Below are positions 38,045-64,000 of a DNA stretch of 64,000 bases, piece after piece (the first letter of the stretch is position 1; each line of letters begins with the position of its first letter). The translations under genes were made by a program, and so were the position numbers. The stretch comes from an uncultured Alphaproteobacteria bacterium (lineage in GTDB: Bacteria > Pseudomonadota > Alphaproteobacteria > Methylaequorales > Methylaequoraceae): positions 10,677 through 74,676 of the forward strand of contig CACJRF010000002.1 of the NCBI GenBank assembly GCA_902595755.1, read 5' to 3'. The notes beneath the pieces are model-generated. The model was not told the DNA's origin. It saw only the letters and a program-made list of their open reading frames with translations, and ran no database searches.

Positions 38045-39741
38045 TGAATTATTTTGATTACTTTAAAATCTCTTTGTCTGAAATATTAAAAGAAATATCT
38101 GAAGAAAAGATAAATTTTATAGAAAAAATAGAAGATTCTTTCACAGTAGAAGTTCCTTCAAAAAAAAACTTTGGTGAACTGTCAACAAATATAGCAATGA
38201 TTTTTTCTAAACAACTTAAAATGTCACCTCGAGATTTAGCAGAATTAATTTCTAAAGAATTAATTAAAAATAAATACGTTAAAGATATTGATATTGCTGG
38301 TCCAGGTTTTATAAATCTTTTTTTGAAAAAAGAATTTTGGCATCAACAACTTGTAAATTTTGTATCTAGTTTTGATAATTATAATTACAATGTTAAACCC
38401 AAAAAAATTTGTGTAGAATATGTTTCTGCAAACCCTACAGGTATGCTTCATATCGGGCATGCTAGAGGAGCGGTATTAGGGGATGCAATTTCATCTATTC
38501 TTCAAGAAGTTGGTCATCACGTTGATAAGGAGTACTATATAAATGATGCAGGCGAGCAGATAAAGAAATTAGTTAAAACTATTATTTATCACAAAGAAAA
38601 CCCTAACTCAGACTTAAAAAAAATTAACAATGATGATTATTATCCAGGAAATTATTTAGTTGGAATTTCGTCAACAATAAACAAAGTTGACAACATTGAA
38701 ATCTCTAATGAAGTAACTGAATTAATAATGAAAGATATAAAAAATGATCTTAAAAGTTTGGGTATTAGTCATGACAACTATATCTCTGAAAAAATAATGG
38801 CAAGTAAATCTAATATCAATCAACTAAAAAAAAAATTAATTGATAAGGATCTTGCATATCTTGGATTTCAGGATGAACCTGATAGTCAAAAAAATAAAAG
38901 TTGGAAAAAAGAGAAAAAACTACTTTTTAGATCGTCTAATTATGGTGATGATAAGGATAGAGCGTTAATAAAACCAAATGGTGAGCTTACATATTTTATG
39001 ACTGATATTATTTATCATCTTAATAAAGTTGAAAGAGGGTATGATATTTTATTAAATGTTTGGGGGGCCGATCATTCTGGATACGTAAAAAGATTAACAA
39101 ATGCAACATTACAGCTAAGTGAAAAAAAAATTAACTTTAAAATTTTCTTAACAGGTTTAGTTAATCTTTATAATAATAAAAAGCTCTTAAAAATGTCTAA
39201 AAGATCAGGAAATTATTTAACATTAAAGGATGTCTATAATGAAGTAGGGTCTGATGCTCTGAGATTTATGATGATTTCAAGAGATGCTAGAAGTACTATA
39301 GATTTTGATTTCCAATCTGTACAAGAAAGAAATAAAGATAATCCAGTATTTTATGTTCAATATGCTTATGCAAGATGTAAATCTCTATTTAAAATTTTTA
39401 AAGAAAACTTTAATTTGAATTCAGATAAAAACGCTTTTTATTCTAATAACCTCAAATTGAATGAGGAGATTGATTTGATAAAAAAAGTCACTAATTTTCA
39501 TAATGTTCTTCTACAATCTGCTGAATTTTATGAACCTCATAGAGTTACAAGCTATTTATATGACCTAGCTAGAATGTTCCACAACTATTGGGGACTAGGT
39601 AAAATTAATCCGAATAATAAAATTATTATAGACGATAATGAAGAAATTACATGTTCAAGAATTTTTCTTGTAAATATTATAAGTTTAGTGATCAAAAAAG
39701 GCCTAAGAATTATAAAAATAAATTGTCCAGAGAATATGTGA
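38044..39741 (+). CDS. argS: arginine--tRNA ligase
   Basis: 565 aa with SANPTGMLHIGHARG and the C-terminal DALR anticodon-binding domain. Confidence 0.95.
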   Translation: MNYFDYFKISLSEILKEISEEKINFIEKIEDSFTVEVPSKKNFGELSTNIAMIFSKQLKMSPRDLAELISKELIKNKYVKDIDIAGPGFINLFLKKEFWHQQLVNFVSSFDNYNYNVKPKKICVEYVSANPTGMLHIGHARGAVLGDAISSILQEVGHHVDKEYYINDAGEQIKKLVKTIIYHKENPNSDLKKINNDDYYPGNYLVGISSTINKVDNIEISNEVTELIMKDIKNDLKSLGISHDNYISEKIMASKSNINQLKKKLIDKDLAYLGFQDEPDSQKNKSWKKEKKLLFRSSNYGDDKDRALIKPNGELTYFMTDIIYHLNKVERGYDILLNVWGADHSGYVKRLTNATLQLSEKKINFKIFLTGLVNLYNNKKLLKMSKRSGNYLTLKDVYNEVGSDALRFMMISRDARSTIDFDFQSVQERNKDNPVFYVQYAYARCKSLFKIFKENFNLNSDKNAFYSNNLKLNEEIDLIKKVTNFHNVLLQSAEFYEPHRVTSYLYDLARMFHNYWGLGKINPNNKIIIDDNEEITCSRIFLVNIISLVIKKGLRIIKINCPENM

Positions 39742-40295
39742 TGAATAAAAAAATAAAAATATTAGTGCTATCACTATCGTACTTATTTTTTATATTTGTA
39801 TTATTTATATCATTTAATGCTGTAATTCCTGATAAAAAGTTACCCGTTATTGAAACAAAAAAACCAATGATAAAAAAAATTGAAAATGAGTTTATCAATG
39901 ACAAGGATTCAATATACGAAATTCTGAGAGACGATAGTAAAGTTAATAATAAAAAAGTAGAACATAATTTAATGAAAAAAAAATATCAAAAAAAGGCATT
40001 AGTTAATAAAATTGAAGTGCTGTCAAAAGAAGGAGAGGTTGGACTAGAAAATAAATATTTAGTTCAGTTTATGTCATTAAAAAGTTCTCATAAAAGTTTA
40101 TTAGCTAGTAATCAATTGGAAAAAAAACTAAAGGACGATAACTTTGATTTAAAACTTGTAGTCAAACCGAAACTTATTGGAGGAAAAAAGTTTTTTCGGG
40201 TTCTAACTGATAAATCTTTCTCATTCAATAGTGGTAAATTGTTATGCGACAAATTAAAAAAAAAAAAATATAAGTGTATTTTGATTAAGCTATGA
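39741..40295 (+). CDS. SPOR domain-containing membrane protein
   Basis: Start placed at ATG 39741 (MNKKIKILV.., 1-nt overlap with the argS stop). One TM segment. The C-terminal SPOR-like block is YLVQFMSLKS...FFRVLTD. Confidence 0.6.
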   Translation: MNKKIKILVLSLSYLFFIFVLFISFNAVIPDKKLPVIETKKPMIKKIENEFINDKDSIYEILRDDSKVNNKKVEHNLMKKKYQKKALVNKIEVLSKEGEVGLENKYLVQFMSLKSSHKSLLASNQLEKKLKDDNFDLKLVVKPKLIGGKKFFRVLTDKSFSFNSGKLLCDKLKKKKYKCILIKL

Positions 40296-43641: not shown

Positions 43642-44897
43642 TGCACGATATAAAATATATTAAAAATAACATAAAAGCTTTTGATGATGCTATTTGCAAA
43701 AGAGGTGGAGTTCCTTGTGCAAAAAAGCTTTTAGAAAAACACAATGAATACCTTTCTTTTCTTAATAAAAAACAAGAATTACAAGAAAAAAGAAATTTAA
43801 TTACTAAATCTTTCAAAGATAGTACCGACACAGAAAAAATAAAAAAACAAGTACAAGAAATAAAAAAAGAAATTGATGAGGTATCTCTGTCTTCAGAAAA
43901 AATATATGAAGAACTTCACCATGAGTTATTATTAATTCCAAATATTTTAGATGCAAAAGTTCCTGAAGGTTTAAACGAAAATGATAATAAAATTATTAAA
44001 GAATACGGTCAAATAAAAGATAAAGATTTTAAAACACTTGACCATGTAAAGTTAATGGAAAATAAAGGCCTATTGAATTATAATGAAGCAATTAAATTAT
44101 CTGGTAGTAGATTTTCTGTATTAAAAAGCGATCTTGCATGTCTTAATAGAGCACTAGTAAATTTTTTTATTGATCATAATGTTTTAGAATTTGGGTATAT
44201 AGAATATGTTATTCCTGAACTGGTAAAAAGTTCGAGTCTAGAAGGTACAGGTCAGCTTCCGAAATTCAAAGATGATTTATTTCAAACAAATTTTAATGAC
44301 CTTTGGCTTATTCCAACTGCTGAAGTCCCTCTTACAAATTTAAATAGAGATACGATACTTAAAGCTAATGAATTACCATTAAGATATACATCATTTACAA
44401 ACTGCTTTAGATCAGAAGCTGGAGCATCTGGAAAAGATACAAAAGGCTTAATGAGAGAACATCAGTTTGGTAAAGTAGAAATAGTCTCAATTACACATCC
44501 TGATAAATCAATAACTGAATTTGATCGGATGATTTCATGTGTAGAGTCAATACTAAAAAAACTTGATTTACCATATAGATTGGTAGAATTATGTTCAGGT
44601 GATTTAGGTTTTTCTTCAACGTATACAATTGATTTTGAAATTTGGATGCCAGGACAAAATCAATTTAGGGAAGTTTCAAGTTGCTCTAACTGTAAAGAAT
44701 TTCAATCTAGAAGAATGAAGATGAGGGTTAAGGATGAAAAAACGAGTCAAATTTATTACCCTCATACTTTAAATAGTTCAGCTGTTGCTGTAGGCAGAAT
44801 AATTGTAGCCATTTTAGAAAATTTTCAAAATGAGGATAGGAGTATTGAAATACCTGAAATATTACGAGGATATATGAATGGGAAAAAAAAATTCTGA
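43641..44897 (+). CDS. serS: serine--tRNA ligase
   Basis: 418 aa. N-terminal coiled-coil arm and class II motifs (FRSEAGASGKDTKGLMREHQF.KVE). Confidence 0.95.
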   Translation: MHDIKYIKNNIKAFDDAICKRGGVPCAKKLLEKHNEYLSFLNKKQELQEKRNLITKSFKDSTDTEKIKKQVQEIKKEIDEVSLSSEKIYEELHHELLLIPNILDAKVPEGLNENDNKIIKEYGQIKDKDFKTLDHVKLMENKGLLNYNEAIKLSGSRFSVLKSDLACLNRALVNFFIDHNVLEFGYIEYVIPELVKSSSLEGTGQLPKFKDDLFQTNFNDLWLIPTAEVPLTNLNRDTILKANELPLRYTSFTNCFRSEAGASGKDTKGLMREHQFGKVEIVSITHPDKSITEFDRMISCVESILKKLDLPYRLVELCSGDLGFSSTYTIDFEIWMPGQNQFREVSSCSNCKEFQSRRMKMRVKDEKTSQIYYPHTLNSSAVAVGRIIVAILENFQNEDRSIEIPEILRGYMNGKKKF

Positions 44898-45549
44898 TAT
44901 GAAATTTAATTCAAATTCAAATGAAAATAAAGTAAGTCTTATTCTTGATTTAAGAAAAAATGGTATTAATAATCCTGAAATTCTTAGAGTAATTGAACAG
45001 ATTGACAGAAGTTACTTTGTTGATTCCCATCTGTATGATAAGTCTAATCTAAATACAGCACTACCAATAGATTGTGGACAAACAATTTCTCAACCTTTAA
45101 TAGTTGCATTGATGACACAACACTTGGAAGTCAAAAGCAATATGAGAGTTCTAGAGGTAGGAACGGGTAGTGGCTATCAGACACTGGTTTTATCTAAGAT
45201 AGCTAAGTTTGTGTATACCATAGAAAGATATAAAACCTTGCATCAAAAGGCCAAAGAACTGCTTAAAATAATCAAAGCAAAAAATATTTTTTTTAGGCAT
45301 AGTGATGGTGGTCTCGGTTGGATTGAACAAGCACCTTTTGATAGAATTATAGTTACTGCTTGTGCATTTGAAATTCCAAATCATTTGTTAGAGCAGTTAG
45401 ATGAAGGGGGTATAATGATTGTTCCAGTAGGAGAAGTTCATGAAGAACAAGTTCTAAAAAAAGTTAAAAAGAATAAGGGAAAAATTTATGTTGAAAATCT
45501 TGAAAAGGTAAGGTTTGTACCTCTTTTAGAAGGCGTTGAAAAGCAATGA
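44878..45549 (+). CDS. pcm: protein-L-isoaspartate O-methyltransferase
   Basis: 223 aa with GQTISQP and VLEVGTGSGYQT. The true start may be the Met at 44899, just after the serS stop. Confidence 0.9.
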   Translation: MGKKNSDMKFNSNSNENKVSLILDLRKNGINNPEILRVIEQIDRSYFVDSHLYDKSNLNTALPIDCGQTISQPLIVALMTQHLEVKSNMRVLEVGTGSGYQTLVLSKIAKFVYTIERYKTLHQKAKELLKIIKAKNIFFRHSDGGLGWIEQAPFDRIIVTACAFEIPNHLLEQLDEGGIMIVPVGEVHEEQVLKKVKKNKGKIYVENLEKVRFVPLLEGVEKQ

Positions 45550-50072: not shown

Positions 50073-50669
50073 TTAATACAAATTAAGATTTTGTGCCGCT
50101 ACCATTGAGTATAGCATTGGAATTGAAAGTAAAGTGTTTGTTCTTGAAAAGAGCATCGCTTTCTTAGCTGAAGCTAATTTCTCCACTTTGGAAACTTCAA
50201 TAATCCCCAATGCTTTCTTTTGATTTGGCCATATGAATACCCAAACATTAAATGCCATTATGATACCTAACCACATACCAATTCCTATTAGTTGATTTTT
50301 TGTACTTCCAGATGATAACAATAAAGATTCATGAAGGTACCCGTTTAAGTGGCCTAGTATCAGTCCAGTAATAAGAGTAGCTATCGCAGCCCATCTAAAC
50401 CAAAATAAAGCTTTTGGTGCAATTACTTTAGAAATAGCCGGTTTTTGTTCATCGGGTATATTTGGCATATTTGGTATTTGAACAAAATTAAAATACCATA
50501 ACAAACCAATCCACATTATCCCTGATAAAACATGTAACCATCTAAATAAAAAGGAATAATATGAGTGGTCAAAAGTTAAACCAGCAGATGATAAAAAAAC
50601 TACTAATAATAATACAAGCAAAAATCCAGATAAAACTGTTTTTCCAAGTGACGAAAGTATGTTATTCAT
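50073..50669 (-). CDS. conserved integral membrane protein (resembles the membrane domain of PuuD-type urate hydroxylase family)
   Basis: 198 aa with 4-5 TM segments. Block RWLHVLSGIMWIGLLWYFNFVQ. The family assignment is from memory only. Confidence 0.4.
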   Translation of the reverse strand: MNNILSSLGKTVLSGFLLVLLLVVFLSSAGLTFDHSYYSFLFRWLHVLSGIMWIGLLWYFNFVQIPNMPNIPDEQKPAISKVIAPKALFWFRWAAIATLITGLILGHLNGYLHESLLLSSGSTKNQLIGIGMWLGIIMAFNVWVFIWPNQKKALGIIEVSKVEKLASAKKAMLFSRTNTLLSIPMLYSMVAAQNLNLY

Positions 50670-51940: not shown

Positions 51941-52189
51941 ATGAAAAATAGATTAAATAAATCATTATCAAGGTTAAAAAAGGAAAAACTTGTTAAAGAA
52001 GATAAAGACTTAATTAGTAAAAAAATCACTCCATTTGAATTTAAAATATTTAAAACTTTGTCTGATAAATATGATTTATCTCTATCAAATTCCAATGAAA
52101 AAACATCCCTTAAGGAAAGTAAAGAATTATCTAGTGACCAAAAAAAGACATTAAATAGAATAAAAAGGGGAGAGAAATTCGAAATATAA
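51941..52189 (+). CDS. hypothetical Lys/Ser-rich protein
   Basis: 82-aa ORF. Preferred over the fully overlapping antisense 103-aa ORF because its composition is protein-like for this genome, whereas the antisense frame is Phe/Leu-rich, as expected for the complement of a Lys-rich frame. Confidence 0.3.
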   Translation: MKNRLNKSLSRLKKEKLVKEDKDLISKKITPFEFKIFKTLSDKYDLSLSNSNEKTSLKESKELSSDQKKTLNRIKRGEKFEI

Positions 52190-52314
52190 TAATATGCTTT
52201 ATTATTATTACATTTTTCCATGGAGTAAACGCCAATTTTGCAAAAATCTCCTCTAATAATTTTATAGACTTACATGTTTATTATGCTGTTACAGAAGAAT
52301 CTAAAAAAAAGGGA

Positions 52315-52641
52315 TTGATGTGGAAAAAAAAATTAATTAAATCAAGCGGAATGCTGTTTTTGTATAAAAAACCACAAATTGTTAATATTTGGATGCATAA
52401 TACTTTTATACCACTTGATATAATTTTCATTGATAAAAATAAAAAAGTTTCAAGTATAAAAGTAGGTAAACCACTGTCGAGAAAAATTATTTCATCTGAT
52501 AAAAAAGTTATTGCTGTGTTAGAGTTGCCTCAAAATTGTTCCAAAAAAATAAGTTTAAACATAGGAGATAAATTAGACTGGATTTATTTAAAATTTTCTA
52601 AAAAAAAAACTTACCATTGTTTATCTTATGATAAAGATTAA
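52315..52641 (+). CDS. DUF192 (COG1430) family protein
   Basis: GLMW.K.L....GMLF......IWM.NT.IPLDIIFID block. The open frame extends upstream to 52159 and encodes a signal-peptide-like IIICFIIITFFHGVNA, but has no ATG/GTG/TTG there (see findings). Confidence 0.65.
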   Translation: MMWKKKLIKSSGMLFLYKKPQIVNIWMHNTFIPLDIIFIDKNKKVSSIKVGKPLSRKIISSDKKVIAVLELPQNCSKKISLNIGDKLDWIYLKFSKKKTYHCLSYDKD

Positions 52642-52661
52642 AATAATACCAGGGTTGAAGA

Positions 52662-53156
52662 ATGGGGAATTCAATAGATAAATACAGTAAAAATGATCCT
52701 ATATTCAAAGCAGAATTTTCAGAATATATACAAAATTTAAAGTTAGAGAATCAGGATGAACATGATAACTTGTATAAAACAATTTCTTCTCTCAGAGATC
52801 AACTTGATGAATCAAAGTTTACTCTAAAAAATAATGTCCAAGAGGCTATAAGTTCAAAAAATGATGAAATTAATCAATTAAAGTCTACGATTACAGAATT
52901 AAGGCATCAATTAGATAAAGCTCAGCACGAAAAAAAAACAGCTATTCAAAAACAAATACAATCAAGTGCTGATGAAATAAATCAGTTGAAAAAATCATGT
53001 CAGGTTTTAAGAGATGAGCTTGAGACATTAAAATTTGAAAAAAAAGAGGCTATTCAAAAAACAATTTTAAATTCATCTGATGAAATTAATCAGCTTAAGG
53101 AATCAACTCAAAAACTAAGAGATGAACTAGAAACTATTATTAAAAAATTAAAATAA
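52662..53156 (+). CDS. coiled-coil protein with three internal ~37-aa repeats
   Basis: 164 aa. The unit S..DEINQLK.S...LR.ELE....EKK.AIQK occurs three times. The stop overlaps the cyclase start (TAATG). Confidence 0.7.
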   Translation: MGNSIDKYSKNDPIFKAEFSEYIQNLKLENQDEHDNLYKTISSLRDQLDESKFTLKNNVQEAISSKNDEINQLKSTITELRHQLDKAQHEKKTAIQKQIQSSADEINQLKKSCQVLRDELETLKFEKKEAIQKTILNSSDEINQLKESTQKLRDELETIIKKLK

Positions 53157-55459
53157 TGAAAAGAACAACAAAAAATATATTTCCTAATGAAGAAATTAAA
53201 AAAGTTAAGTGTTTACTAGAAATTTCAAGAAAAATTGGAGCACTTAAAGAATTATCACATATACTCTGGACTATTATTGATTTTGCAACGGAAAACGTCA
53301 ATGCTGATAGAGGGTCAATATTTTTAAATGATTCAGAAACAAATGAATTATACTCAAGAGTTGCTCAAGGAGATTTAACTAGAGAGATAAGGATATTAAA
53401 TAATGTTGGTATTGCAGGTTCAATATTCCAGAGTAAGCATGGAGAGATAATTCATGACGTTTATAGCGATAAAAGGTTTAATAAGGATGTAGATCAAGAA
53501 ACTGGTTATAAAACAAAAAATATGATTTGTTCCCCCGTTAAAACCGTCGATGGAAAAACTATTGGTGTTATTCAAGTTTTGAATAAGAAAAAGGGAAGGT
53601 TTAGTAAAGCAGATTTGAATTTAATAAATGATATTTCAACTCAGGCTGCAATTTCGATTCAAAATGCTCAAAACAATGAGTTTTTTCAAAAGAAACGTGA
53701 ACAGGAAATGGAATTTGTAAGTATTGTTTCAGATGTAACTGCTGAGATTGATTTAAGTTCACTTTTAAAAAGGGTAATGGAAGAGGCCACTAAGATGCTT
53801 AATGCAGATAGAGCGACATTATTTCTTAACGATGAAAAAACACAAGAACTTTTTTCAAGGGTAGCAATGGGAGAGGGCGTTGGTGAAATAAGGTTACCAA
53901 ATTCAGTAGGTATTGCTGGAAGTGTTTTTACTTCAGGGAAGACTATGAACATCCCTTTTGCATACGCAGATTTAAGATTTAATCCGGCATTTGATAAACA
54001 AACAGGCTATTTTACAAGATCTATTTTGTGTGTTCCAATCGTTAACAAAATTGGAAAGGTAATTGGTTGTACTCAAGTTTTAAATAAGAAGGGTGGAAAG
54101 TTTACAGATGAGGATGAATCTAGACTGAAAGCTTTCACCCAGCAAGTTGCTATTGCGCTTGAAAATGCAAAGTTGTTTGATGATGTATCAAAATCAAAAA
54201 AATATAATGAAAGTATGCTCTCAAGTATGTCTAATGGTGTTATTACAATTAATGAAGAAGATGAAATTGTAACCTGTAATAAATCTGGGCTTAAAATTTT
54301 AAGAGTTGTAAGTCCAAATATAATTGGATTAAAATCTGAAAGTTTTTTTAAAGAAAAAAATTCTTGGATTCAGGATAAAATCAATGCTGTAAAAAAAAAT
54401 CATGAACCAGAATTAATTATGGATTGTGAGATTGAAGTATTTAATTCAGAAAATGAAAAAAAAGAATTAGTTTCAGCTAACCTGACCATATTACCATTAA
54501 TTAATGAAGAAAATGAGGGAAGAACAGATTCTCAAAATCAATTTCTCGGAACACTATTGATGCTTGAAGATATTTCATCAGAAAAAAGAATGAAATCTAC
54601 GATGTCAAGATATATGGACCCAGGTATAGCGGATCAACTTTTAGAAGAGGGTGCTGATATTATGGGTGGGTTAGATACAACAGCTACACTTTTATTTTCT
54701 GATCTAAGAAGCTTCACAAATATTACCGAGTCACTTGGAGCGCAAGGAACTGTAAAGCTTTTAAATGAGTACTTTGAAATTATGGTTGAGTGTATTACTG
54801 AACAGGCAGGAATGCTTGATAAGTTTATTGGAGATGCGATTATGGCAGCATTTGGCTTGCCAATAAAACATGAAGATGACGAAGATAGAGGAGTTAAGGC
54901 AGGTATAAATATGATTAAAAGACTATGGCAATGGAATGAAGTTCGCAATAAAGAAGGTAAACCTCCCCTTGATATGGGGTTAGGTTTAAATACTGACAAA
55001 ATTGTAGCTGGAAATATAGGTTCACAAAAAAGAATGGATTATACCATGATAGGAGATGGGGTTAATTTAGCAGCAAGGCTTGAAAGCGCATGTAAACAGT
55101 ACAATGCAAGAATCCTAATTAGTGATTTTACTTTTAAAAAACTAAAAGGAACATATAGAATACGATACATTGATGATGTAGTTGTAAAAGGTAAAACAGA
55201 ACCTGTTGGTGTTCATGAAGTGTTAGATTATCATAATGATAAAACATTCCCAAATTTAATGGATGTTGTGAATCATTTTAATGAGGGTAGAAAAAAATAT
55301 AGAATTGGAGATTTCACATCGTCAATTAGTTCTTTTCAGGAATGTTTAAAGGCTAACTCAAATGATTTACTATCAAAAACATATATTGAAAGGTGTGACC
55401 AATTAATAAAAGAAAAGCCAACAAACTGGGATGGGGTTTGGGTCATGAAAAGTAAATGA
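53156..55459 (+). CDS. soluble GAF-GAF-PAS class III adenylate cyclase
   Basis: 767 aa with no TM segment. Two GAF domains (ADRGSIFLND..ELYSRVAQG / ADRATLFLNDE..ELFSRVAMG). A PAS-like segment (MLSSMSNGVITINEEDEIVTCNKSG). Cyclase homology domain with metal Asp residues (LLFSDLRSFT, KFIGDAIMAAFG) and the transition-state block GDGVNLAARLES. Confidence 0.9.
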   Translation: MKRTTKNIFPNEEIKKVKCLLEISRKIGALKELSHILWTIIDFATENVNADRGSIFLNDSETNELYSRVAQGDLTREIRILNNVGIAGSIFQSKHGEIIHDVYSDKRFNKDVDQETGYKTKNMICSPVKTVDGKTIGVIQVLNKKKGRFSKADLNLINDISTQAAISIQNAQNNEFFQKKREQEMEFVSIVSDVTAEIDLSSLLKRVMEEATKMLNADRATLFLNDEKTQELFSRVAMGEGVGEIRLPNSVGIAGSVFTSGKTMNIPFAYADLRFNPAFDKQTGYFTRSILCVPIVNKIGKVIGCTQVLNKKGGKFTDEDESRLKAFTQQVAIALENAKLFDDVSKSKKYNESMLSSMSNGVITINEEDEIVTCNKSGLKILRVVSPNIIGLKSESFFKEKNSWIQDKINAVKKNHEPELIMDCEIEVFNSENEKKELVSANLTILPLINEENEGRTDSQNQFLGTLLMLEDISSEKRMKSTMSRYMDPGIADQLLEEGADIMGGLDTTATLLFSDLRSFTNITESLGAQGTVKLLNEYFEIMVECITEQAGMLDKFIGDAIMAAFGLPIKHEDDEDRGVKAGINMIKRLWQWNEVRNKEGKPPLDMGLGLNTDKIVAGNIGSQKRMDYTMIGDGVNLAARLESACKQYNARILISDFTFKKLKGTYRIRYIDDVVVKGKTEPVGVHEVLDYHNDKTFPNLMDVVNHFNEGRKKYRIGDFTSSISSFQECLKANSNDLLSKTYIERCDQLIKEKPTNWDGVWVMKSK

Positions 55460-56175
55460 GAGAATATCCTCTCGAAAAAAATATGCCTAGCCTTAATTAT
55501 ATTATAAATAATTGGCCAAGATCAAAACCTATTCTGAAAAAGTTTGTGCTTTCTAAACATTCAGCACCAGATCTGTTAAATATTTGTCAATTATGTCTCA
55601 AAGAACTGAAAGTTTTTAGAGAAAAAAAAATTAATTTTATTTTGAGTAAAGTATCTAAAATTTGTTCGATAAATAAAACTTACAACACCTATCATAATAG
55701 CCATCACCTCAAGGCTGTAATTGTAACTGCCTGTATTATTGCAAAAAATAATGAATTATCTAAAAGAGATAAAGTGTTATTAGTTATAATTTCTTTATGT
55801 CATGATATTGGGCATCAAGGAAGAAGAATAATTTCAAGACCTTATTACCAAGAGGAATTGAGTTACCATGTATTTAGGAGATTTTTCTATAAGGTGTTTT
55901 CTAAAAAAAAAGAACTTCAAAGAATTTTAAGAATATTTAGAAATACGTACTTTCCTGAAAAACCAGAAAAAGTTAATGATAAATTAGAAAAAATCATACT
56001 TGATGCTGATATTTTATCCTCATTGATGTTTGATGTGAATACAGGATTAGAATTTGCAAGGAGACTTAAGCATGAATTAAAAATGAAATCTACTTCTGAA
56101 GAGTTATTTGAGTCCTTTCTAAACTCAATCAACAATAAAACATTATATATGGATAGATCAAAAAATTTATGCTAA
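55456..56175 (+). CDS. HD-superfamily phosphohydrolase with class I cyclic-nucleotide phosphodiesterase-like motifs
   Basis: 239 aa with YHNSHHLKAV, then LCHDIGHQG 38 aa later, then ILDADIL. Compare the PDE class I blocks YHN..HAADV / HD.DH.G / LATDM. ATGA overlap with the cyclase gene. Confidence 0.55.
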   Translation: MREYPLEKNMPSLNYIINNWPRSKPILKKFVLSKHSAPDLLNICQLCLKELKVFREKKINFILSKVSKICSINKTYNTYHNSHHLKAVIVTACIIAKNNELSKRDKVLLVIISLCHDIGHQGRRIISRPYYQEELSYHVFRRFFYKVFSKKKELQRILRIFRNTYFPEKPEKVNDKLEKIILDADILSSLMFDVNTGLEFARRLKHELKMKSTSEELFESFLNSINNKTLYMDRSKNLC

Positions 56176-57551
56176 AGATTAAATCTACAGTGACGTTAAG
56201 AATTATACACAATTTATTTTTTGTGGATATGTTAAATTTTGGTAAAGTTATGATTTTACAAAAAGTTGCATTTGTTTTTTTTACTTTTCTTGTTTTTGAA
56301 GCAAATTCTCAAGACAAAGCTTTTGATCTTAAACGGTCTATAGAAAAAGTACTCATAAATCACAAAACAATTCTGGCCTCTAAAACTGATATAGAGGCGG
56401 CTAAACTAAGAATTAAACAATCTAGGGGAGGATATTTCCCATCGCTTGATGTAACAGCAAATTATGGTCATGAAAATATTATAAAATATGGACCAGGAAA
56501 TAATACACAACTAGCAGCAAGAGATGCAACTGCAAAAATTACACAAACACTATCTGATTTCGGATTGACCGAATCAACTGTGAAAACCTCTAAACTTTCT
56601 TTGAAACAAACTAGAGCATTAGAAAGGCAAATAAAAAATGATATTCTTCTTAGAGCCTTAACAGCTTACCTGAGGGTAATTCAGTCAAGAGAAAGTGTAA
56701 AATTTGCAAAACAGTCTGTTGAGAATATTAAAAAACAAACAGAGTTAGAAGACGCTGCTGTAAATGCTGGTGGAGGTTTAACATCAGATGTTTTACAGGC
56801 AAAAACTCAATTAGCTGGTGCTCAAGCAAGGCAAATTCAATTTGAGGGAGTCCTAGATGCTGCAAAACATGAATTTGTATATATTTTTGAGACATTCCCA
56901 AGAGATTTAGAATCTTTAAAATTAATAAAATCTATATTTAACAGGTTGCCCAAAACTTTAGATGAAGCAGAAAAAATAGTCCTTAAAAACAATCCCTCTT
57001 TAATTGCAGCAAGAGTTTCTACTGAAATAAGTAAAGAAGCTATTAATACTGCGAGGGCATCACTTTTTCCTAAAATCAAAGGAATAATAAGTCATTCTGA
57101 AAAACAAGATTTTGGAGGTATAGTTGGTTTTAAAAGAGAAAGTTCAGCTAAGATAGATTTTTCATATCCATTAAATTTAAGTTTTTCTGAATATGCTGGA
57201 AAAGATGCAGCTGTTCAATCATATTTGTCAACACAGACTAGAATTAAAGACCAAGAGGATATGATAACACAGATGTTAAGAACAACTTGGGATGGCTTGT
57301 CAACTGCACAAAAAAATGCAGAATTTTTGTCAAATCAAGCAAGAATCTCTGGAGAGTTTCTCGAACTAGCAAGAACAGAGAGAAAAGCAGGGAACAGAAC
57401 ACTTTTAGATGTTTTGAATGGAGAGACGGCTTTTATTAACTCTCAATCTGATGCAATTGCTGCAAAAATTGAGGTTTTAATAAATAGTTTTACACTTTTA
57501 AGTTTAATGGGAGGATTAACACTAGACAATATTGAACTTGAAAAAAATTAA
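56169..57551 (+). CDS. TolC-family outer membrane protein, type I secretion-associated
   Basis: 460-aa maximal ORF. The likely start is an internal Met (56229 or 56250; signal peptide [20 protein letters not shown]). Two OEP repeats. Ends 3 nt before the first RTX protein gene. Confidence 0.85.
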
Positions 57552-57553
57552 AA

Positions 57554-60511
57554 ATGCTTTCTGATAAAAATATAAATAAAAATCAATCTAATCAATTGGT
57601 TAACAAGCACTACTCAGGCAATGGATTAGATATAAAGAATGCTCCCGAATGGCTTCCTAAAGCAAGCTTTTCAAGAAATGATACAGATTTAATTGCAACT
57701 AATTCAAACTTTGAATCTTATATTTTCATAGATTATTTTACTAATTTTGAATTACCTTCAATATTTACCAATAACGGCTTGATGTTAAAAGGTAATCTTG
57801 TCGAAACTTTAGCTGGAGCACTTTCTAAAGCTCAGTACGTTCAAGCCGCAAGTGGAGAAATTCTTTCTATCGGCGAGGTTTCAACAAAGGAAGGTTCTAT
57901 AATTGCAACAAGATTAGATGGAACTTCAACAGAATTAAATATTGGGGATCCAGTATTTCAAGGTGACACTATTGAAACGGTTGGTAGTGGCTCAGTTGGT
58001 CTTGTTTTTTTAGATAAAACTACCCTATCACTATCGGATGGTGGAAAAATGGTGCTTGATGAGTTAATTTTTGATCCAGCGACAGGCAATGGTAGCATGG
58101 CAGTTGACATGTTAGAAGGAGCATTTAGTTTTGTTAGTGGAGAAATAGCTAAAACAGGACCTGATGCAATGAAAGTTTCTACTCCTGTCGCAACTATTGG
58201 TATCAGAGGAACTACAGTAGCTGGAAAGGCAGCCGTTGAGGGTAATCAGAATTCATTTACTTTACTCCAGGATGCAGATGGTGGAGTAGGACAAATTTCT
58301 GTAAGTAACGATGGAGGAACTCAGGTTTTACAACAAGTTGGTGCTACAACTAGTATATCCAGTTTTACAGCACCTCCACCCCCTCCGATCATTTTAACAG
58401 CAGCACAAATTCAAGCTAATTATGGTACTGCACTTAATGTACTTCCCCCAACACCAACCGTAGCTCCAACACCTCAGACTGCCCCAGCACCCCCACAAGA
58501 AGAACAAGAGCAACAGGTTCAAGAAGAATCTCAAGAGGAAGAGTCTACAGATGAAGATGTATCTGAAGATGAATCATCTGTAGGTTCTGATGAGGAAGGC
58601 CAACCAGAAGGCGAAGAACTACCGGAAGGTGAAGGACCACCGGAAGGTGAAGACCTACTAGAAGGTGAAGGACCACCAGTTGGACCAGATGGAGAACCAC
58701 TTCCTCCAGGTGAAGGAGGCCCTCCATTGGGGCCAGACGGAGAACCACTTCCTCCAGGTGAAGGAGGCCCTCCATTGGGGCCAGACGGAGAACCACTTCC
58801 TCCAGGTGAAGGAGGCCCTCCATTGGGGCCAGACGGAGAACCTTTACCCCCAGGTGAGGGTGGGCCACCTTTAGGAGCAGATGGAGAACCATTATCCCCA
58901 GAGCAAGAAAATGCAGGTAGGGAGGCATTTCAACAAGCATTAGCTGATGGTGCAACCCCAGAGGAAGCTATGGCAGCAGCCGCAGAAGCTGCAGGTTTTG
59001 ATGGTCCAATACCTCCAGGAGGCCCAGAAGGAGATTTTGGTCCAGGAGGACCACAAGGACCAGGTGGTCCAGGAGGAGATTTTGGTCCAGGAGGACCAGG
59101 AGAACCGGGTGGTCCAGGAGGAGATTTTGGTCCAGGAGGAGATTTTGGTCCAGGAGGAGATTTTGGTCCAGGAGGACCAGGAGAACCGGGTGGTCCAGGT
59201 GGAGATTTTGGTCCAGGAGGAGATTTTGGTCCAGGAGGACCAGGAGGACCAGGAGGACCGGGTGGACCGGGTAGTCCAGGTGGAGTTCCATTTGGTGGGC
59301 TTGGATTTGCTGGAGATCCAAGTTCGGATATTTCTGTAAATCCCGGAGGTGATTTTGGTTCTCCTTTTGCTGGTCCGGGAGGCCCGTTAGGTGGTCCAGG
59401 TGGAATAGGGGGATTAAATTCTTCCCCATTTGGTGGTCCTAGTGAAGGATTTAATCCTTCTCCATTTGGTGGCCCTATTGGTTTTGGGCCTGCTGACCCT
59501 TATGGTGCTCCAGGAGGTTTTGGTCCTGATCCATTTGGTGGTCCAGGAGTTTTTGGTCCTGACCCATTTGGTGGTCCAGTTGACCCAATTATGGGTGGAG
59601 GTTATCAAATGGGATTCACAGACCCATTTGGTGGTCCTGTATTTAACGCAATTTATAATGATTTTGGTGGAGGTTTTATAGAGGCATACGGAGATAGTTC
59701 ATATATGATGGAACCAGTTTATTTTTTTGATGATCCAGCTCTTTATGATGATTATATTCCACCAGGAGAGTTTGAGGAGGAATATCAAACTGAGGAACTT
59801 AATCAAACTGACTTTACTCTAAGTGGTACCAGCAGCGCTGACAACATTAGTGCCTCCTCCTCTAATAGCTCTTATACAATTGCTGGTTATAGTGGTGGTG
59901 ATGTTATTACAGGTGGTGCTGGAAATGATGTTTTGTGGGGTGGACTTGGAATTGATTCTTTGACAGGTGGAGATGGTAATGATCAATTTTACTATACAGA
60001 TTTACTTGAAGGTCCTGATGTAATCACAGATTTTGGTCAGAATGCTGATCAAGATAAACTTCTTTTTGCACATTCACCATCATCTCCCTATACACGTACA
60101 TCAGTAGCTGAAGTACAGGGTGAAATTGGAGATTTTGATTATTCAGCGAATGGAAACATTTTACCGTACGTCTTTGCATTTGAAGATTCCAGTCTTTATG
60201 GGGTAACCAGTAAAAGTGTTTTAGCAACGACTTTAGCAAACGGTAATTTTAAAATTTGGGCTGATCAAGCAAATAATCAAGCTCTTGCAGGTGAGCAGTA
60301 TTTTCTTCTTACACCAGGTGCATCAGACACAGGAATTAATGTTTTTGTTTGGACAGACGGAAAAACCCCGCAAGGACAAAATACTGGAACAAGCGACGGC
60401 GTTGTTGATTCAACTGAGCTTTCATATATAGCTAGCTTAGCTGGTGGAGATACGAGTAACATTACTGGAGATGAATTTGCATTCCAATCAATTTCTGGTT
60501 TTAGTGTTTAA
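57554..60511 (+). CDS. large secreted protein: FecR-like N-terminal domain, acidic + Pro/Gly/Phe-rich repeat spacer, RTX Ca-binding repeats (predicted T1SS substrate), paralogue 1
   Basis: 985 aa with no Cys and no Sec signal peptide. FecR-like block [40 protein letters not shown] (about nt 57870-58230). Tandem [16 protein letters not shown] and GDFGPG repeats. RTX nonapeptides [28 protein letters not shown] (about nt 59890-59996). Confidence 0.85.
57641..58456 (+). repeat. paralogous block A (N-terminal region incl. FecR-like domain), copy 1 of 2
   Basis: Aligns by eye along its whole length with 60746-61565. Long stretches are identical at the amino-acid level (e.g. [35 protein letters not shown]) but differ at many synonymous sites. 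Confidence 0.9.
58682..58900 (+). repeat. in-frame 48-bp tandem repeat ([16 protein letters not shown]), about 4.5 copies
   Basis: Copies at 58682-58729, 58730-58777, 58778-58825 and 58826-58873, plus a partial copy. Copies 2 and 3 are identical at 48/48 nt. Copy 1 differs at 2 synonymous positions. Copy 4 is diverged. Confidence 0.95.
59030..59285 (+). repeat. in-frame 18-bp tandem repeat ggagattttggtccagga (GDFGPG) interleaved with [10 protein letters not shown] units (a 45-bp higher-order unit occurs twice)
   Basis: Direct reading shows at least 7 near-identical GDFGPG units. The unit ggagattttggtccaggaggaccaggagaaccgggtggtccagg is repeated. Confidence 0.9.
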
Positions 60512-60673
60512 ATATTAAATATAGTCCTCCTTGCATTATTTCACTAATAATGTAATATGTGCATGTATTTGCTTTCAAAGTGTAGACATAAAAATAAACT
60601 AAATTAAAAAGTTTAAGTTAATTTCAGTTTAGGTATGATTATTAATAATTCAGATACTAAATAGATCAACTTT

Positions 60674-63649
60674 ATGTTTACAAATCAGATAGACAAGATC
60701 AATAATAAATCAATATTTGCGGGTTCACCTAATCTTATCAAGAATCTTCCGGATTGGTTGCCAAAGGCCGACTTTCACAGATCTTCAAGTGATTTAGTAG
60801 CTAAATCAAGTTCAAATAATGAGCAAATAACATTGGTTGATTATTTTTCTAACTTTGACCTTCCATCAGTCTTAACCAGTAATGGTCTTTTATTAAATGG
60901 TTCACTGTTATCAACTTTAGCAGGGCCAGTTTCAATTGGAAAATATGCTCAAGCAGCTGAAACAGAAGTTCTCTCAATTGGAGAAGTAACAAGTGTCAAC
61001 GGAACGGTTAAGGCTACTAGAGTTGATGGAAACATTTTTGAGTTAAGTGTTGGAGACCCTGTGTTTCAGGGAGATACAATTGAAACTACTGGTAATGGGT
61101 CTGTTGGTTTAGTTTTTATAGATAAAACTACTTTTTCACTATCCGAGGGTGGAAAAATGGTACTTGATGAACTTGTTTATGACTCATCAACTGGAAATGG
61201 TAGTATGACTGTTGATATGTTAGAAGGAGCTTTCAGTTTTATAAGTGGTGAAGTAGCAAAAACTGGACCTGATGCCATGCAACTAAAAACACCAGTTGTA
61301 ACCATGGGAATAAGAGGAACAACAGTGGCTGGTAAGGCAGCAGTTGAAGGTAATGAAAATTCATTTACACTTCTGCAAGATGCAGATGGTGGTGTTGGTC
61401 AAATTTCTGTAAGTAATGATGGAGGAACCCAAGTGTTATCTCAGGTTGGTGCAACAACAGTTGTATCTAGTTTCACCGCAGCTCCACCTCAACCCATAAT
61501 TTTGACAACGGCACAAATCCAGGCAAATTATGGAACAGCTCTTAACGTTTTACCTCCAACTCCAGCTGTAGCACCTCAGCCTCAATCTGCACCACCACCC
61601 CAAGAGGAGGTGCAAGAAGAGGCAACACAAGAAGAAACAGAGGAAGATAGCGATGAGAATTCTGAAGAGGAAGGAAATGAAGATGTATCAGAAGAGGGGG
61701 ACAGTGAATCTGATGGTGAGGAAAATCAATCTGAGGAAGGTCTTCTAGAAGAAGAGGGAGTTGCAGAAGGGGACGGTGAGGCGCTAGAAGGAGAGGGACC
61801 ACCAGAAGGAGAAGGCACTTCTGAAGAGGAAGGTCCTCTAGATGGAGAGGGTCCTCCCCCAGAAGGTGGAGAAGAGGGCCCAGCATTAGGACCTGATGGC
61901 GAAGCCTTATCTTCAGAACAAGAACCTGCTGGGGAAGAAGCATTTGAACAAGCCATAGCAGACGGGGCTACACCGGAAGAAGCTATGGCAGCTGCAGCTG
62001 CAGCTACAGGTTTTGATGGTCCTGCAGCTCCAGGAGAACTAGGAGGCCCTGAAGGACCTGGAGGCCCAGGAGATTTAGGACCTGGAGGCCCGGGAGATTT
62101 AGGACCAGCAGGAGGCACGGGGGATTTAGGGCCAGCAGGAGGTCCTGAAGGACTATCGGGAGGAAATCTTGGTGACCCTTTTAGTAGTCCAGGTAATCCA
62201 GGAAATTTTGGAGTTCCCAGTGGATTTAGTCCCTCTTCATTGGGTGGCCCTGTTGGAGGTTTTAATTCATCTCCATTTAGTAGTCCAGTTGGTTTTGCTG
62301 CTGGCCCTTATGGTGACATTGGAATTGGTCCTGACCCGTTTGGTGGCGTTCCGGGAGGTTTTGGTCCTGATCCATTTGGAAGTCCAATTGGCGGTCCAGA
62401 TTTATTTGGTGGACCCGAACTTGCAGGTTATGAAGATTTGAGTACCATGGAATCTTTCGAACCAATCTTTTTCTTTGATGATCCTTCTTTATATAATGAC
62501 TTTTTAGAACCTCCACTTGAATTAGAAGAGAATCTAGGATCCTCATCTTCTAATGCGGGACAAACTTTAACCGGCGATTCCGGATCTAATGTAATTAATG
62601 GGACTGATGGCGATGATACAATTGATGGAGGCTTAGGTGTTGATACACTAACTGGGGGTAATGGAAGTGATATTTTTGTTTTATCTGATTTTGGTGATAC
62701 AATTACTGATTTCACTACATCAGATTCTTTGAGAATAAATTTTACCTTTGACCCTCCATCAACAACCTATAATGTAGTAAGATCAGATTTCTATACATTT
62801 GAGGCATCTTCTTCTACTGGATCATTGACATGGAACTCCACACCATCAAGTTCTTCACAAATTATAACTGAAACAGAGAGTAACGGTGCATTTAGTAATG
62901 CTCAAGTAATTAGCAGATCTTCTTTTAAAGTTACTGCTAACCCAGAAGTTGGTAATGATACAGATCCTTGGGTAAATATCGAAAGTGGTTATATAAGTAA
63001 TGGTGTTGATATTTTTAAGGTAGATTTACAAGCAGGGGAAAAACTGACAGTTGATGTAGATTATGGTGATTCTTTTAGTAGAAGTTTTGATTCTTATATT
63101 ACAATTTATGATTCAACTTATAACAGTGTAGCTGAAAATGACAACTCATTAGTTTCACAAGGTGGGACAGGAAGTTCTGGAACATTAGATTCATTTGTAG
63201 AATATACAACGAATTCAAATCAAACCCATTATATATTTGTAGAGGATGCTCCCAAGAATTCAAACTCAAATACAACTGGAGACTATGAATTAAATATTAG
63301 TATAACTCCAACTGCTTCATCTACAGGATTAGGTGTGAGTTCGAGTAGTAATGTCGGTGGAAATAACGAATTACCGTATGTAATAAATTTAGTTGAGGAT
63401 ACGAGTAATTACCTTTCAAAAAGTTTCAAAAGTGGTTTGGTTTCTTCTATTAGATATACAAATGCTACAACTAATACTGGAAGTGAAATATTCCTTGTTG
63501 CTGGTGACGGTACAAATAGTGCTATTTGGATGTGGGATGATTTATCACAAGGGTATGGAATAAGTGATAATGAGTTAACATTTGTGGCTCATTTAGAAAA
63601 TTTTGATAATGATAATCTATCAAGCTCACAAATTTCTTTTACGTCATAA
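60674..63649 (+). CDS. large secreted protein: FecR-like N-terminal domain, acidic/Pro-Gly spacer, RTX repeats, PPC (pre-peptidase C-terminal)-like domain (predicted T1SS substrate), paralogue 2
   Basis: 991 aa with no Cys and no Sec signal. The N-terminal ~300 aa are closely similar to paralogue 1. RTX block GTDGDDTIDGGLGVDTLTGGNGSDIFVL (about nt 62575-62690). PPC-like domain ETESNGAFSNAQVI...DIFKVDLQAGEKLTVDV...ITIYDS...GDYELNISI (about nt 62872-63312). Confidence 0.85.
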   Translation: MFTNQIDKINNKSIFAGSPNLIKNLPDWLPKADFHRSSSDLVAKSSSNNEQITLVDYFSNFDLPSVLTSNGLLLNGSLLSTLAGPVSIGKYAQAAETEVLSIGEVTSVNGTVKATRVDGNIFELSVGDPVFQGDTIETTGNGSVGLVFIDKTTFSLSEGGKMVLDELVYDSSTGNGSMTVDMLEGAFSFISGEVAKTGPDAMQLKTPVVTMGIRGTTVAGKAAVEGNENSFTLLQDADGGVGQISVSNDGGTQVLSQVGATTVVSSFTAAPPQPIILTTAQIQANYGTALNVLPPTPAVAPQPQSAPPPQEEVQEEATQEETEEDSDENSEEEGNEDVSEEGDSESDGEENQSEEGLLEEEGVAEGDGEALEGEGPPEGEGTSEEEGPLDGEGPPPEGGEEGPALGPDGEALSSEQEPAGEEAFEQAIADGATPEEAMAAAAAATGFDGPAAPGELGGPEGPGGPGDLGPGGPGDLGPAGGTGDLGPAGGPEGLSGGNLGDPFSSPGNPGNFGVPSGFSPSSLGGPVGGFNSSPFSSPVGFAAGPYGDIGIGPDPFGGVPGGFGPDPFGSPIGGPDLFGGPELAGYEDLSTMESFEPIFFFDDPSLYNDFLEPPLELEENLGSSSSNAGQTLTGDSGSNVINGTDGDDTIDGGLGVDTLTGGNGSDIFVLSDFGDTITDFTTSDSLRINFTFDPPSTTYNVVRSDFYTFEASSSTGSLTWNSTPSSSSQIITETESNGAFSNAQVISRSSFKVTANPEVGNDTDPWVNIESGYISNGVDIFKVDLQAGEKLTVDVDYGDSFSRSFDSYITIYDSTYNSVAENDNSLVSQGGTGSSGTLDSFVEYTTNSNQTHYIFVEDAPKNSNSNTTGDYELNISITPTASSTGLGVSSSSNVGGNNELPYVINLVEDTSNYLSKSFKSGLVSSIRYTNATTNTGSEIFLVAGDGTNSAIWMWDDLSQGYGISDNELTFVAHLENFDNDNLSSSQISFTS
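60746..61565 (+). repeat. paralogous block A, copy 2 of 2
   Basis: See 57641-58456. Confidence 0.9.
62057..62150 (+). repeat. in-frame 24-27-bp tandem repeat (PGGPGDLG / PAGGTGDLG), about 3.5 copies
   Basis: The sequence reads cctggaggcccaggagatttagga / cctggaggcccgggagatttagga / ccagcaggaggcacgggggatttaggg / ccagcaggaggtcct... Confidence 0.8.
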
Positions 63650-63710
63650 ATTTATGAAGAATAAATTATAAAAAAAATTATTTAAGGGTTATAATAGCGT
63701 AGTTAAAAAA

Positions 63711-64000
63711 ATGCTATATTGGCTTGAAATATTAAAAAAAAGCAACTCTCTTGGAATTGTTTTAGTTCTTTCACTTTTAATAACTTTCATGGGGTTATTA
63801 AGCCCAATTTTTATAATTCATATTTTTAATAGGTATATAACTTTTGGTCTTGAGGGAACTTTATATTTTTTAGTTATTGGTGCTCTTTTAGTTGCATCAT
63901 TTGAATTTCTTTTTCGAAATCTACGAAATGCAATTTTTGAGCAAGTTATAATAGGCCCAACTAAAAGTGCAAAATTAGAGATTTTCAACAGGTCATTTGA
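63711..64000 (+). CDS. type I secretion system permease/ATPase (PrtD/HlyB-family ABC transporter), N-terminal fragment, continues past window end
   Basis: Hand-translated from ATG 63711: MLYWLEILKKSNSLGIVLVLSLLITFMGLLSPIFIIHIFNRYITFGLEGTLYFLVIGALLVASFEFLFRNLRNAIFEQ... The pattern (.S..iN.L.L..P.f...v.dRv......tL..L.....) fits TM1-TM2 of T1SS ABC exporters. Its position directly after the RTX genes supports the call. Confidence 0.7.
   Translation, partial: MLYWLEILKKSNSLGIVLVLSLLITFMGLLSPIFIIHIFNRYITFGLEGTLYFLVIGALLVASFEFLFRNLRNAIFEQVIIGPTKSAKLEIFNRSF

Follow-up and report, generated by a model that had tools for sequence, protein, structure and literature searches.

Tandem RTX proteins with a FecR-like, retention-module head in a type I secretion operon of marine Alphaproteobacteria

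Substrates of type I secretion systems (T1SS) leave the cell unfolded and C-terminus first, and their RTX repeats fold on extracellular Ca2+. T1SS adhesins that carry a retention module are known mainly as giant biofilm proteins of copiotrophs, regulated by cyclic di-GMP (c-di-GMP). This N-terminal module has been well described for two-step T1SS (PMC5550230, bioRxiv 10.1101/198937, PMC10990149): the RIN domain of the Marinomonas primoryensis adhesin MpIBP (24x28x26 A) was reported to be too large for the 20 A pore of TolC, and so to act as a plug (PMC5550230), and the retention module of LapA from Pseudomonas fluorescens plugs likewise, LapG cutting at a TAAG di-alanine site under the control of c-di-GMP and LapD (bioRxiv 10.1101/198937, PMC10990149). 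The ATP-binding cassette (ABC) exporters of LapB type have a distinctive N-terminal domain of ~125 amino acids (aa) (bioRxiv 10.1101/198937). Here we analyse two adjacent genes for RTX proteins, cargo A and cargo B, in a stretch of 64,000 nucleotides (nt) from contig CACJRF010000002.1 of an uncultured Alphaproteobacteria bacterium (assembly GCA_902595755.1), hereafter the window. Their N-terminal heads are related both to the retention module and to the FecR domain, and we lean towards a reading in which the head tethers each protein at the cell surface.

Each protein is encoded by one open reading frame (ORF), running exactly as a preliminary description of this DNA had delimited it, and divides into a head, a stalk, an RTX block and a C-terminal region, as follows.

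57554-60511, + strand: cargo A, 985 aa, no cysteine, isoelectric point (pI) 4.05
57599-57769, + strand: A aa 16-72, small N-terminal beta subdomain, possibly BapA-prefix-like (AlphaFold2 strands, predicted local distance difference test score, pLDDT, 80-90)
57863-58363, + strand: A aa 104-270, retention-module / FecR-like beta-sandwich (Pfam, NCBIfam, PDB entry 5ix9, Foldseek)
58469-59773, + strand: A aa 306-740, low-complexity stalk, 50% Gly+Pro, net charge -76, with DNA tandem repeats
58934-59008, + strand: A aa 461-485, Ala-rich island, the most constrained segment of the stalk
59885-59986, + strand: A aa 778-811, RTX nonapeptide block (Pfam HemolysinCabind, 28.1 bits)
60155-60508, + strand: A aa 868-985, C-terminal tail, where the T1SS secretion signal presumably lies (BLASTP to the B tail)
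60674-63649, + strand: cargo B, 991 aa, no cysteine, pI 4.05
60674-61558, + strand: B aa 1-295, head, subdomains as in A (Pfam FecR at aa 134-221; NF033682 at aa 103-167)
61577-62533, + strand: B aa 302-620, acidic Gly/Pro/Ser stalk, net charge -77
61958-62023, + strand: B aa 429-450, Ala-rich island within the stalk, counterpart of the A island
62570-62674, + strand: B aa 633-667, RTX block, predicted beta-roll (HemolysinCabind, 28.2 bits; AlphaFold2 pLDDT ~90)
62969-63310, + strand: B aa 766-879, predicted beta-sandwich of PPC / collagen-binding-domain fold (AlphaFold2 and Foldseek), no equivalent in A
63365-63646, + strand: B aa 898-991, C-terminal tail (ELPYV...GDGTNSAIWMWDD...ELTFVAHL...), related to the A tail

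The AlphaFold2 model of A residues 1-310, built with 47 homologues, is confident (pLDDT 85.5), and consists of a beta subdomain (aa 16-72), a short helix, a large beta-sandwich (aa 107-270) and a further helix (aa 283-295), followed by a Pro-rich linker. The preliminary description had called this head FecR-like, and both profile and fold bear that out: Pfam FecR (PF04773) scores 28.1 and 27.6 bits in the two proteins against a gathering score of 24 (A aa 138-230, B aa 134-221), and Foldseek searches of the PDB with the model returned the periplasmic domains of FecR-type anti-sigma proteins, 4m0n/4m0h and PupR (6ovk_R), at probability 1.0 over ~152 columns, at identities of 13-16%. The same search placed the head on 5ix9, the MpIBP RIN or 'cell surface anchoring domain' (TMt 0.78, root-mean-square deviation 0.8 A, 34% identity over 62 columns), which was also the sole significant match of the head sequence profile to the PDB (E 2.8e-9). 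Consistent with this, the NCBIfam model retention_LapA (NF033682) matches 46 of the 47 family heads (best E 1.2e-11; aa 107-171 in A), and the BapA prefix-like model (NF033677) matches 11 of 47 (best E 3.1e-5), a match which we infer to fall on the aa 16-72 subdomain. Sub-threshold matches were obtained to LipL45 in 46 and to Lsa33 in 44 of the 47 heads (NF033165, NF047849; best E ~1e-10).

Judged by sequence profile, the first half of the head is homologous to the LapA/MpIBP retention module, and the head family bridges the FecR and retention-module families, which are otherwise unconnected by sequence. This link is drawn through the bridging family and through structure, not as a direct Pfam relation, since the MpIBP RIN peptide gave no FecR match when searched against Pfam. 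The known relatives of the head fold, FecR/PupR domains on the one hand and the retention module on the other, both work in the periplasm, and the link suggests a common periplasmic docking fold for two families that are treated as unrelated in the literature we searched; there, we found no co-mention of 'FecR' and 'retention module', and nothing relevant on this system in SAR11/HIMB59-type genomes. The preliminary description had further proposed that an N-terminal FecR-type domain on T1SS cargo was an undescribed architecture. That proposal is unsupported, because the head is homologous to a described retention module and because the same head stands on thousands of RTX-tailed proteins; what does seem to have gone unremarked is the bridge between the FecR and retention-module families.

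The breadth of this distribution emerged from a search of the head profile against 1.84 billion cluster representatives (clusters at 50% identity), with matches to 25,302 proteins at E<=1e-3; at the stricter E<=1e-30, 3,251 clusters remained. Among the best 150 representatives the head lies at the N-terminus in every case (from residues ~1-60 onward), on proteins of up to 3,843 aa; 95 of 137 newly returned head-bearing sequences are free of cysteine, and at least two RTX nonapeptide matches occur in 88 of the 108 head-bearing proteins of at least 700 aa. In Pfam, these distant proteins combine FecR with HemolysinCabind, and in one case FG-GAP and Calx-beta are present as well, and many share a tail of the form 'GDGT.S.IWLWED...EL..VA.L', so that the conserved tail type of A and B recurs on distant head-bearing RTX proteins. 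The head at the N-terminus of RTX cargo is thus a common, unnamed architecture, built on a module of a described functional class. Its marine alphaproteobacterial family reaches a very large size in metagenomes, and annotation of the members goes no further than 'FecR domain-containing' or hypothetical. Two of the distant contexts may be mentioned. In Magnetovibrio (L024/L025/L026:8353-21233), a 410-aa head-only protein is encoded directly after TolC, with a GGDEF response regulator upstream, and a SocA/RhuM/IS1595 insertion separates the head gene from that of a Big_9/Cadherin/Laminin_G protein of 6,195-8,212 aa; here a mobile element has probably split the gene of a giant RTX adhesin. Another distant locus reads TolC, head, RTX fragments, ABC and membrane fusion protein, while the contexts of P0116 and P0081 lie on frameshift-ridden long-read assemblies and are only partly interpretable.

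The genes around A and B encode a T1SS and, upstream of it, predicted enzymes of cyclic mononucleotide (cNMP) metabolism.

52662-53156, + strand: 164-aa coiled-coil protein (weak coiled-coil-type Pfam matches), its stop overlapping the cyclase start
53156-55459, + strand: GAF-GAF-PAS class III adenylate/guanylate cyclase, cytoplasmic, 767 aa (GAF 125.7 bits, Guanylate_cyc 79.9 bits)
55456-56175, + strand: HD-domain protein, 239 aa (Pfam HD 24.5 bits, cutoff 22)
56169-57551, + strand: TolC-family outer-membrane channel, 460 aa (Pfam OEP 184.9 bits)
63711-64000, + strand: first part of the T1SS ABC exporter gene, truncated at the edge of the window (match to TIGR03375 LssB from position 141 of the model)

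A translationally coupled block begins with the coiled-coil gene. The coiled-coil, cyclase, HD, TolC and cargo A genes overlap or abut, the cyclase gene overlapping the HD gene by 4 nt and the HD gene the TolC start by 7 nt, with 2 nt between the end of TolC and the start of cargo A, which argues for a single operon; 61 nt separate cargo B from the ABC exporter. A scan for promoters and terminators across 52000-64000 returned counts no higher than in shuffled sequence, and gave no usable indication of where the operon begins and ends. The HD protein has a weak similarity to class I cyclic-nucleotide phosphodiesterases (PDEase_I 22.2 bits, under the cutoff of 24.8), and the TolC protein scores 192.5 bits on TIGR01844 (type_I_sec_TolC), under the cutoff of 225. 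The ABC exporter starts directly with its transmembrane domain and has no C39-like N-terminal domain; its full-length orthologue in the related locus L007 (L007:12819-14429) comprises 536 aa and matches LssB positions 140-675, and the HlyD adaptor of L007 reaches 291 bits with TIGR01843, whose cutoff is 208.65. With TolC and an ABC exporter adjacent, and HlyD above its curated cutoff in related loci, the designation of A and B as T1SS cargo in the preliminary description stands, and their export by the surrounding system is very probable.

Scanning a single genome for each species, we recovered 23 related loci, in low-GC marine metagenome-assembled genomes (MAGs) and single-amplified genomes whose records are labelled Pelagibacteraceae, Rickettsiales or Alphaproteobacteria. 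The gene order, established from tblastn synteny together with Pfam and NCBIfam scans of L007, is invariant: DUF192, coiled coil, GAF-PAS cyclase, HD, TolC, cargo, ABC exporter (~530 aa) and HlyD. The coiled-coil gene precedes the cyclase in all related loci, and the cyclase is syntenic in 18. Most loci hold two cargo copies, and L007 and L010 hold one; the complete proteins measure 711-1160 aa, are almost always free of cysteine, and are of two types, 'copy 1', rich in Gly/Pro, and 'copy 2', which is shorter. Downstream of HlyD, and on the opposite strand, lie genes for a fused antiporter, two cNMP-binding proteins and a CHASE2 class III cyclase (L007:16363-20662). This block is present in every related locus that is long enough (L007, L010, L018, L019, L020, L023). 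The antiporter, as represented in L007, is of the UmpA/UmpB-like Na,Li,K/H+ kind, with its two DUF1538 halves in one 566-aa protein, and the two stand-alone cNMP-binding proteins (~135-155 aa) have no DNA-binding domain; gating of an antiporter module by cNMP would by itself be unusual.

Comparison of A with B reveals the mosaic conservation that the preliminary description had outlined, and a region-by-region alignment with codon-level divergence estimates gives it numbers. Over the full length, BLASTP scores 704 bits at 48% identity across 904 columns, of which 181 are gaps. In the head (A aa 31-305), identity rises to 74%, and 104 of the 203 identical residues use different codons, with a synonymous divergence (dS) of 1.55, near saturation, and a ratio of nonsynonymous to synonymous divergence (dN/dS) of 0.13. 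The Ala-rich island of the stalk is more constrained still (88% identity, dN/dS 0.04), and is present in relatives too, and the short motifs SSPF, PDPFGG and FFFDDP.LY recur in both stalks; outside the island, the stalks align through composition and short motifs alone. The total lack of cysteine, the acidic pI and the polar N-termini, which on reading the translations contain neither a hydrophobic stretch nor a signal peptide, are likewise as first described, and so are the mostly identical heads with their many synonymous changes and the conserved islands in the spacer. A conserved C-terminal tail had also been claimed; here relatedness holds, weakly (31% identity over 114 aa, pairwise BLASTP E 1e-4), and the claim had overlooked that B alone carries an insert of ~170-200 aa between RTX block and tail, including a predicted folded domain of ~115 aa.

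On these grounds A and B are diverged tandem paralogues, whose duplication, judged by codon-level comparison, is old and under purifying selection in the window's genome. An assembly duplication, against which the preliminary description had already argued, is excluded because of the synonymous divergence between the two copies (head dS 1.55), and the two-copy arrangement in most related genomes equally rules it out. A neighbour-joining tree of heads groups the copies by paralogue in one subclade, which points to an old duplication, and by genome in others. In one relative (L018:1-5037), the two tandem heads are 99% identical, compared with 74-84% in other genomes, which suggests recent gene conversion confined to the head. 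The statement that the pair was not recently homogenised thus holds for the window's genome and fails for L018: heads appear to be homogenised occasionally by gene conversion, and not in the genome from which the window derives. The search for relatives also fixed the number of paralogues, at one to two cargo copies per related locus.

Between head and RTX block, both proteins consist of compositionally extreme, hypervariable sequence. The DNA of the stalks has a GC content of 52-56%, against an average of ~28% for the window, and contains tandem repeats of 48 nt (4.3 copies, 90% matches) and 81 nt (2.7 copies, 91%), which are young. The A stalk holds 18 Phe-Gly (FG) dipeptides in GDFGPGG and PFGGP repeats, superficially reminiscent of cohesive FG-repeat disordered domains, and the B stalk holds five. 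A collagen-like triple helix was considered for the stalk and rejected, since Gly-X-Y runs extend to no more than 9 triplets in A and no more than 7 in B. Several ORFs (80-150 aa) that overlap the stalks (58545-59681, 61542-62715) in other frames and on the minus strand most likely arise from the repetitive, GC-rich composition and do not represent genes.

The RTX block is minimal, as had been noted earlier at about three nonapeptides: HemolysinCabind (PF00353) passes its cutoff of 23 once per protein, over a single stretch of 3-4 nonapeptides, and scores 36.3 bits when the C-terminal fragment of A is scanned alone. At E values up to 10, Pfam scans of the stalk and of the C-terminal 245-300 aa found only HemolysinCabind. 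For B 620-991, AlphaFold2 gave a model of moderate quality (overall pLDDT 62.7), in which the beta-roll reaches ~90 and the sandwich at aa 766-879 a local ~60-86. In this moderate-confidence model, the sandwich resembles 3jqw, 5sv5 and 1nqd (Foldseek probability 1.0, TMt 0.6-0.7), which are structures of the ColH/ColG collagen-binding domain and the PPC domain, and we found no Pfam PPC match for B at E 10; copy B is therefore predicted, from its modelled fold, to carry a collagen-binding-like domain. A homologue search with the C-terminal 301 aa of B gave 16 matches, all close relatives. One public protein (P0122), 100% identical over 79% of a query spanning B aa 691-991 (window 62744-63646), is labelled 'Candidatus Neomarinimicrobiota bacterium'; because every other relative is alphaproteobacterial, its source is probably a mis-binned MAG contig.

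Elsewhere, the window is largely housekeeping in content, the rest of the scanned sequence encoding transketolase, ribulose-phosphate epimerase, GTP cyclohydrolase I, ArgRS, IlvD, TatC, SecD/SecF and ScpA. Two paralogues of protein-L-isoaspartate O-methyltransferase lie within 16 kb of each other, one divergent (28583-29353, 76 bits) and one canonical (44878-45549, 208 bits). Adjoining SecF, on the minus strand, a 198-aa membrane protein (50073-50669) matches only the N-terminal domain of urate oxidase (PF06181), and six ORFs of 214-263 aa (17353-18075, 19537-21115, 25674-26465, 33304-34059, 39651-40295) gave no Pfam match at E<=1e-4.

Taken together, these features favour, on balance and by a modest lean, an account in which A and B are T1SS-exported proteins tethered by their heads, mini RTX adhesins on disordered stalks. 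Each would be threaded out C-terminus first by way of its conserved ~100-aa tail; the short RTX block would become a Ca2+-bound beta-roll in seawater, and the disordered, acidic Gly/Pro stalk (320-435 aa) would exit behind it. The head (~270-300 aa), predicted to be a Ca-independent beta-sandwich made up of a LapA/MpIBP-type retention module and the rest of a FecR-like fold, is larger in the model than RIN, and would be too bulky for the ~20 A pore of TolC. We propose that the protein consequently stays plugged in its own channel, head in the periplasm and stalk outside, to yield a miniature RTX 'adhesin' or surface brush. Copy B would then present its predicted collagen-binding-like (PPC-fold) domain at the distal end, and copy A a roll and tail only, on a longer, FG-rich stalk. 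The translational coupling of cyclase and HD phosphodiesterase to TolC suggests, further, that display or release might be tied to cyclic AMP (cAMP) or cyclic GMP (cGMP), in place of the c-di-GMP/LapD/LapG circuit of Pseudomonas, and the CHASE2 cyclase encoded nearby in relatives points the same way. Such cNMP-linked control is speculative, as synteny is the sole evidence for it and distant loci are without cNMP genes.

Several observations count against the tethered account. The window proteins score 24.1 (A) and 28.7 bits (B) on NF033682, under its curated cutoff of 50, and no LapG-type di-alanine site is conserved after the head, where A reads LTAAQ (aa 281-285) and B LTTAQ. These sites were rejected as LapG targets for want of conservation between the two copies; distant homologues read TAQQ or SAAQ, and the conserved AGKAAVEG motif of the head falls within the sandwich. 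Neither a BTLCP (LapG-type) protease nor a LapD-like receptor was found in the locus, in the neighbourhood of L007 or among 20 further window ORFs of suitable size. The N-terminal domain typical of LapB-type exporters is missing from the ABC exporter, the stalk is disordered, with no Ca-stiffened Ig repeats and no Pfam domain in the middle of the protein, and the proteins are of ~100 kDa, not >200 kDa. A folded head could, moreover, be halted on the cytoplasmic side of the ABC exporter, or unfold and be released, and the synteny with cNMP genes could be an incidental conserved order in streamlined genomes, given distant loci without a cyclase. Much of this would also suit one-step T1SS exoproteins released into seawater, with a head that folds and acts outside, as a binding module for example, and a stalk that serves as a soluble cation-binding or matrix polymer. 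We regard such release as unlikely, though deserving of serious weight: the exporter is short (~530 aa) and has no N-terminal accessory domain, as in releasing systems of PrtD/HasD type; no release protease or di-alanine site was found within the scope just given; the proteins are small relative to tethered adhesins; and, of the Leptospira FecR-domain proteins, Lsa33 carries the annotation of a surface adhesin and LipL45 that of a lipoprotein, which makes an extracellular role possible. What tells for tethering is the head, which is homologous to a module with a demonstrated role in preventing release, whose solved fold relatives act in the periplasm, and which also stands on adhesin-like proteins of several thousand residues; copy B has, in addition, a predicted distal domain of binding type, such as RTX adhesins carry.

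Compatible with tethering, and on present evidence a distinctly long shot, is the idea that the retained head doubles as a signalling ligand, contacting the periplasmic CHASE2 domain of the cyclase that related genomes encode just downstream, so that occupancy or loss of the surface protein feeds back on the cAMP/cGMP set by the operon's cyclase and phosphodiesterase. The CHASE2-cyclase, two cNMP-binding proteins and antiporter follow HlyD in every related locus of sufficient length, and the GAF-PAS cyclase and HD gene are co-operonic with TolC and cargo; gene pairs of a FecR-domain protein and a CHASE2 sensor are documented in Burkholderia (PMC5192318), and in Sinorhizobium, a bacterium with CHASE2 cyclases, one cAMP/Clr target is a FecR-domain protein (PMC5498481). 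However, the CHASE2 gene falls beyond the window, is encoded on the opposite strand and comes after an unrelated antiporter module; this clade generally shows strong conservation of gene order; and CHASE2 genes are absent from distant head-bearing T1SS loci. In its fullest form, the idea would amount to a surface-display system of streamlined marine Alphaproteobacteria, independent of LapG and LapD and governed by cyclic mononucleotides, with an enlarged FecR-like plug reporting to a periplasmic CHASE2 cyclase, and with display or shedding of a hypervariable, FG-rich, polyanionic brush wired to cAMP/cGMP and not to c-di-GMP; this we consider quite improbable. Far less credible again is a role for A and B as FecR-type anti-sigma or cell-surface-signalling regulators, or as periplasmic FecR-domain proteins that are not secreted. 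Pfam FecR does exceed its cutoff, and the fold does match PupR and BDI_1681; but neither protein has an N-terminal anti-sigma domain, a transmembrane helix or a signal peptide, no ECF sigma factor or TonB-dependent transducer is encoded nearby, and the proteins contain RTX repeats within a surrounding T1SS operon, so that architecture and gene context rule out an anti-sigma FecR regulator.

If the tethered account is correct, then free-living oligotrophs also invest in tethered surface proteins, in this case a tandem pair of 100-kDa proteins in low-GC planktonic marine Alphaproteobacteria. Their hypervariable exposed parts would be plausible targets of phage or grazer pressure, or might serve in particle or cation binding, and the co-operonic cyclase and phosphodiesterase would offer a possible alternative to the LapD/LapG release circuit.

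Among known systems, the FecR and PupR signalling domains (6ovk, 4m0n) resemble the heads of A and B as periplasmic protein-interaction beta-sandwiches, recognised by Pfam FecR and by Foldseek at probability 1.0, whereas A and B lack an anti-sigma domain, transmembrane helix, STN partner, TonB-dependent transducer and ECF sigma factor, share only 13-16% identity with them, and have the domain fused to T1SS cargo. LipL45 and Lsa33 of Leptospira are likewise cell-envelope proteins with a FecR domain, and give sub-threshold model matches; unlike A and B, however, they are exported by the Sec/lipoprotein route, without RTX repeats or a T1SS, and the scores of the A/B family fall far under the model cutoffs of 350-420 bits. 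The Burkholderia BiofilmReg FecR(-LysM)/CHASE2 pair also has a FecR-domain protein encoded near a CHASE2 protein, a CHASE2-cyclase in the case of our related loci. There, the FecR protein has a signal peptide and LysM, and the CHASE2 protein is a histidine kinase of the same operon (PMC5192318), whereas in our loci several genes and a change of strand separate the CHASE2 gene from the cargo, and it is T1SS cargo that bears the FecR-like domain. With the RTX exoproteins of PrtD/HasD type, such as serralysins and lipases, A and B share a short RTX block, an acidic and Cys-poor composition and an exporter without a C39/CLD domain, but they have no enzymatic domain, and their retention-type head and long disordered stalk have no counterpart in that group.

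The closest likeness is to LapA, MpIBP and BapA. In common with these adhesins, A and B have an N-terminal beta-sandwich homologous to the retention module or RIN, C-terminal RTX repeats and a secretion tail, an acidic and nearly Cys-free composition, and a dedicated TolC/ABC/HlyD set encoded alongside; a domain of ligand-binding type near the distal end is predicted in B only. The head of A and B is more than twice as long, however, continuing into a full FecR-like sandwich, and an extra subdomain of ~60 aa precedes the retention module. A conserved TAAG-type site is lacking, LapG and LapD were not found in the locus, the 20 window ORFs or L007, and the exporter is without the LapB N-terminal domain. 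The extender is not an array of tens of Ig-like repeats but 320-435 aa of disordered Gly/Pro/acidic sequence, in proteins of ~100 kDa, and the operon holds genes for cNMP rather than c-di-GMP metabolism. As several features that define the Lap system are thus absent, we describe A and B as working like LapA-type adhesins and do not file them as members of that family. They are compact, tandemly duplicated RTX proteins with a retention-type head, set on a disordered stalk and encoded with a non-Lap exporter in a cNMP-flavoured operon.

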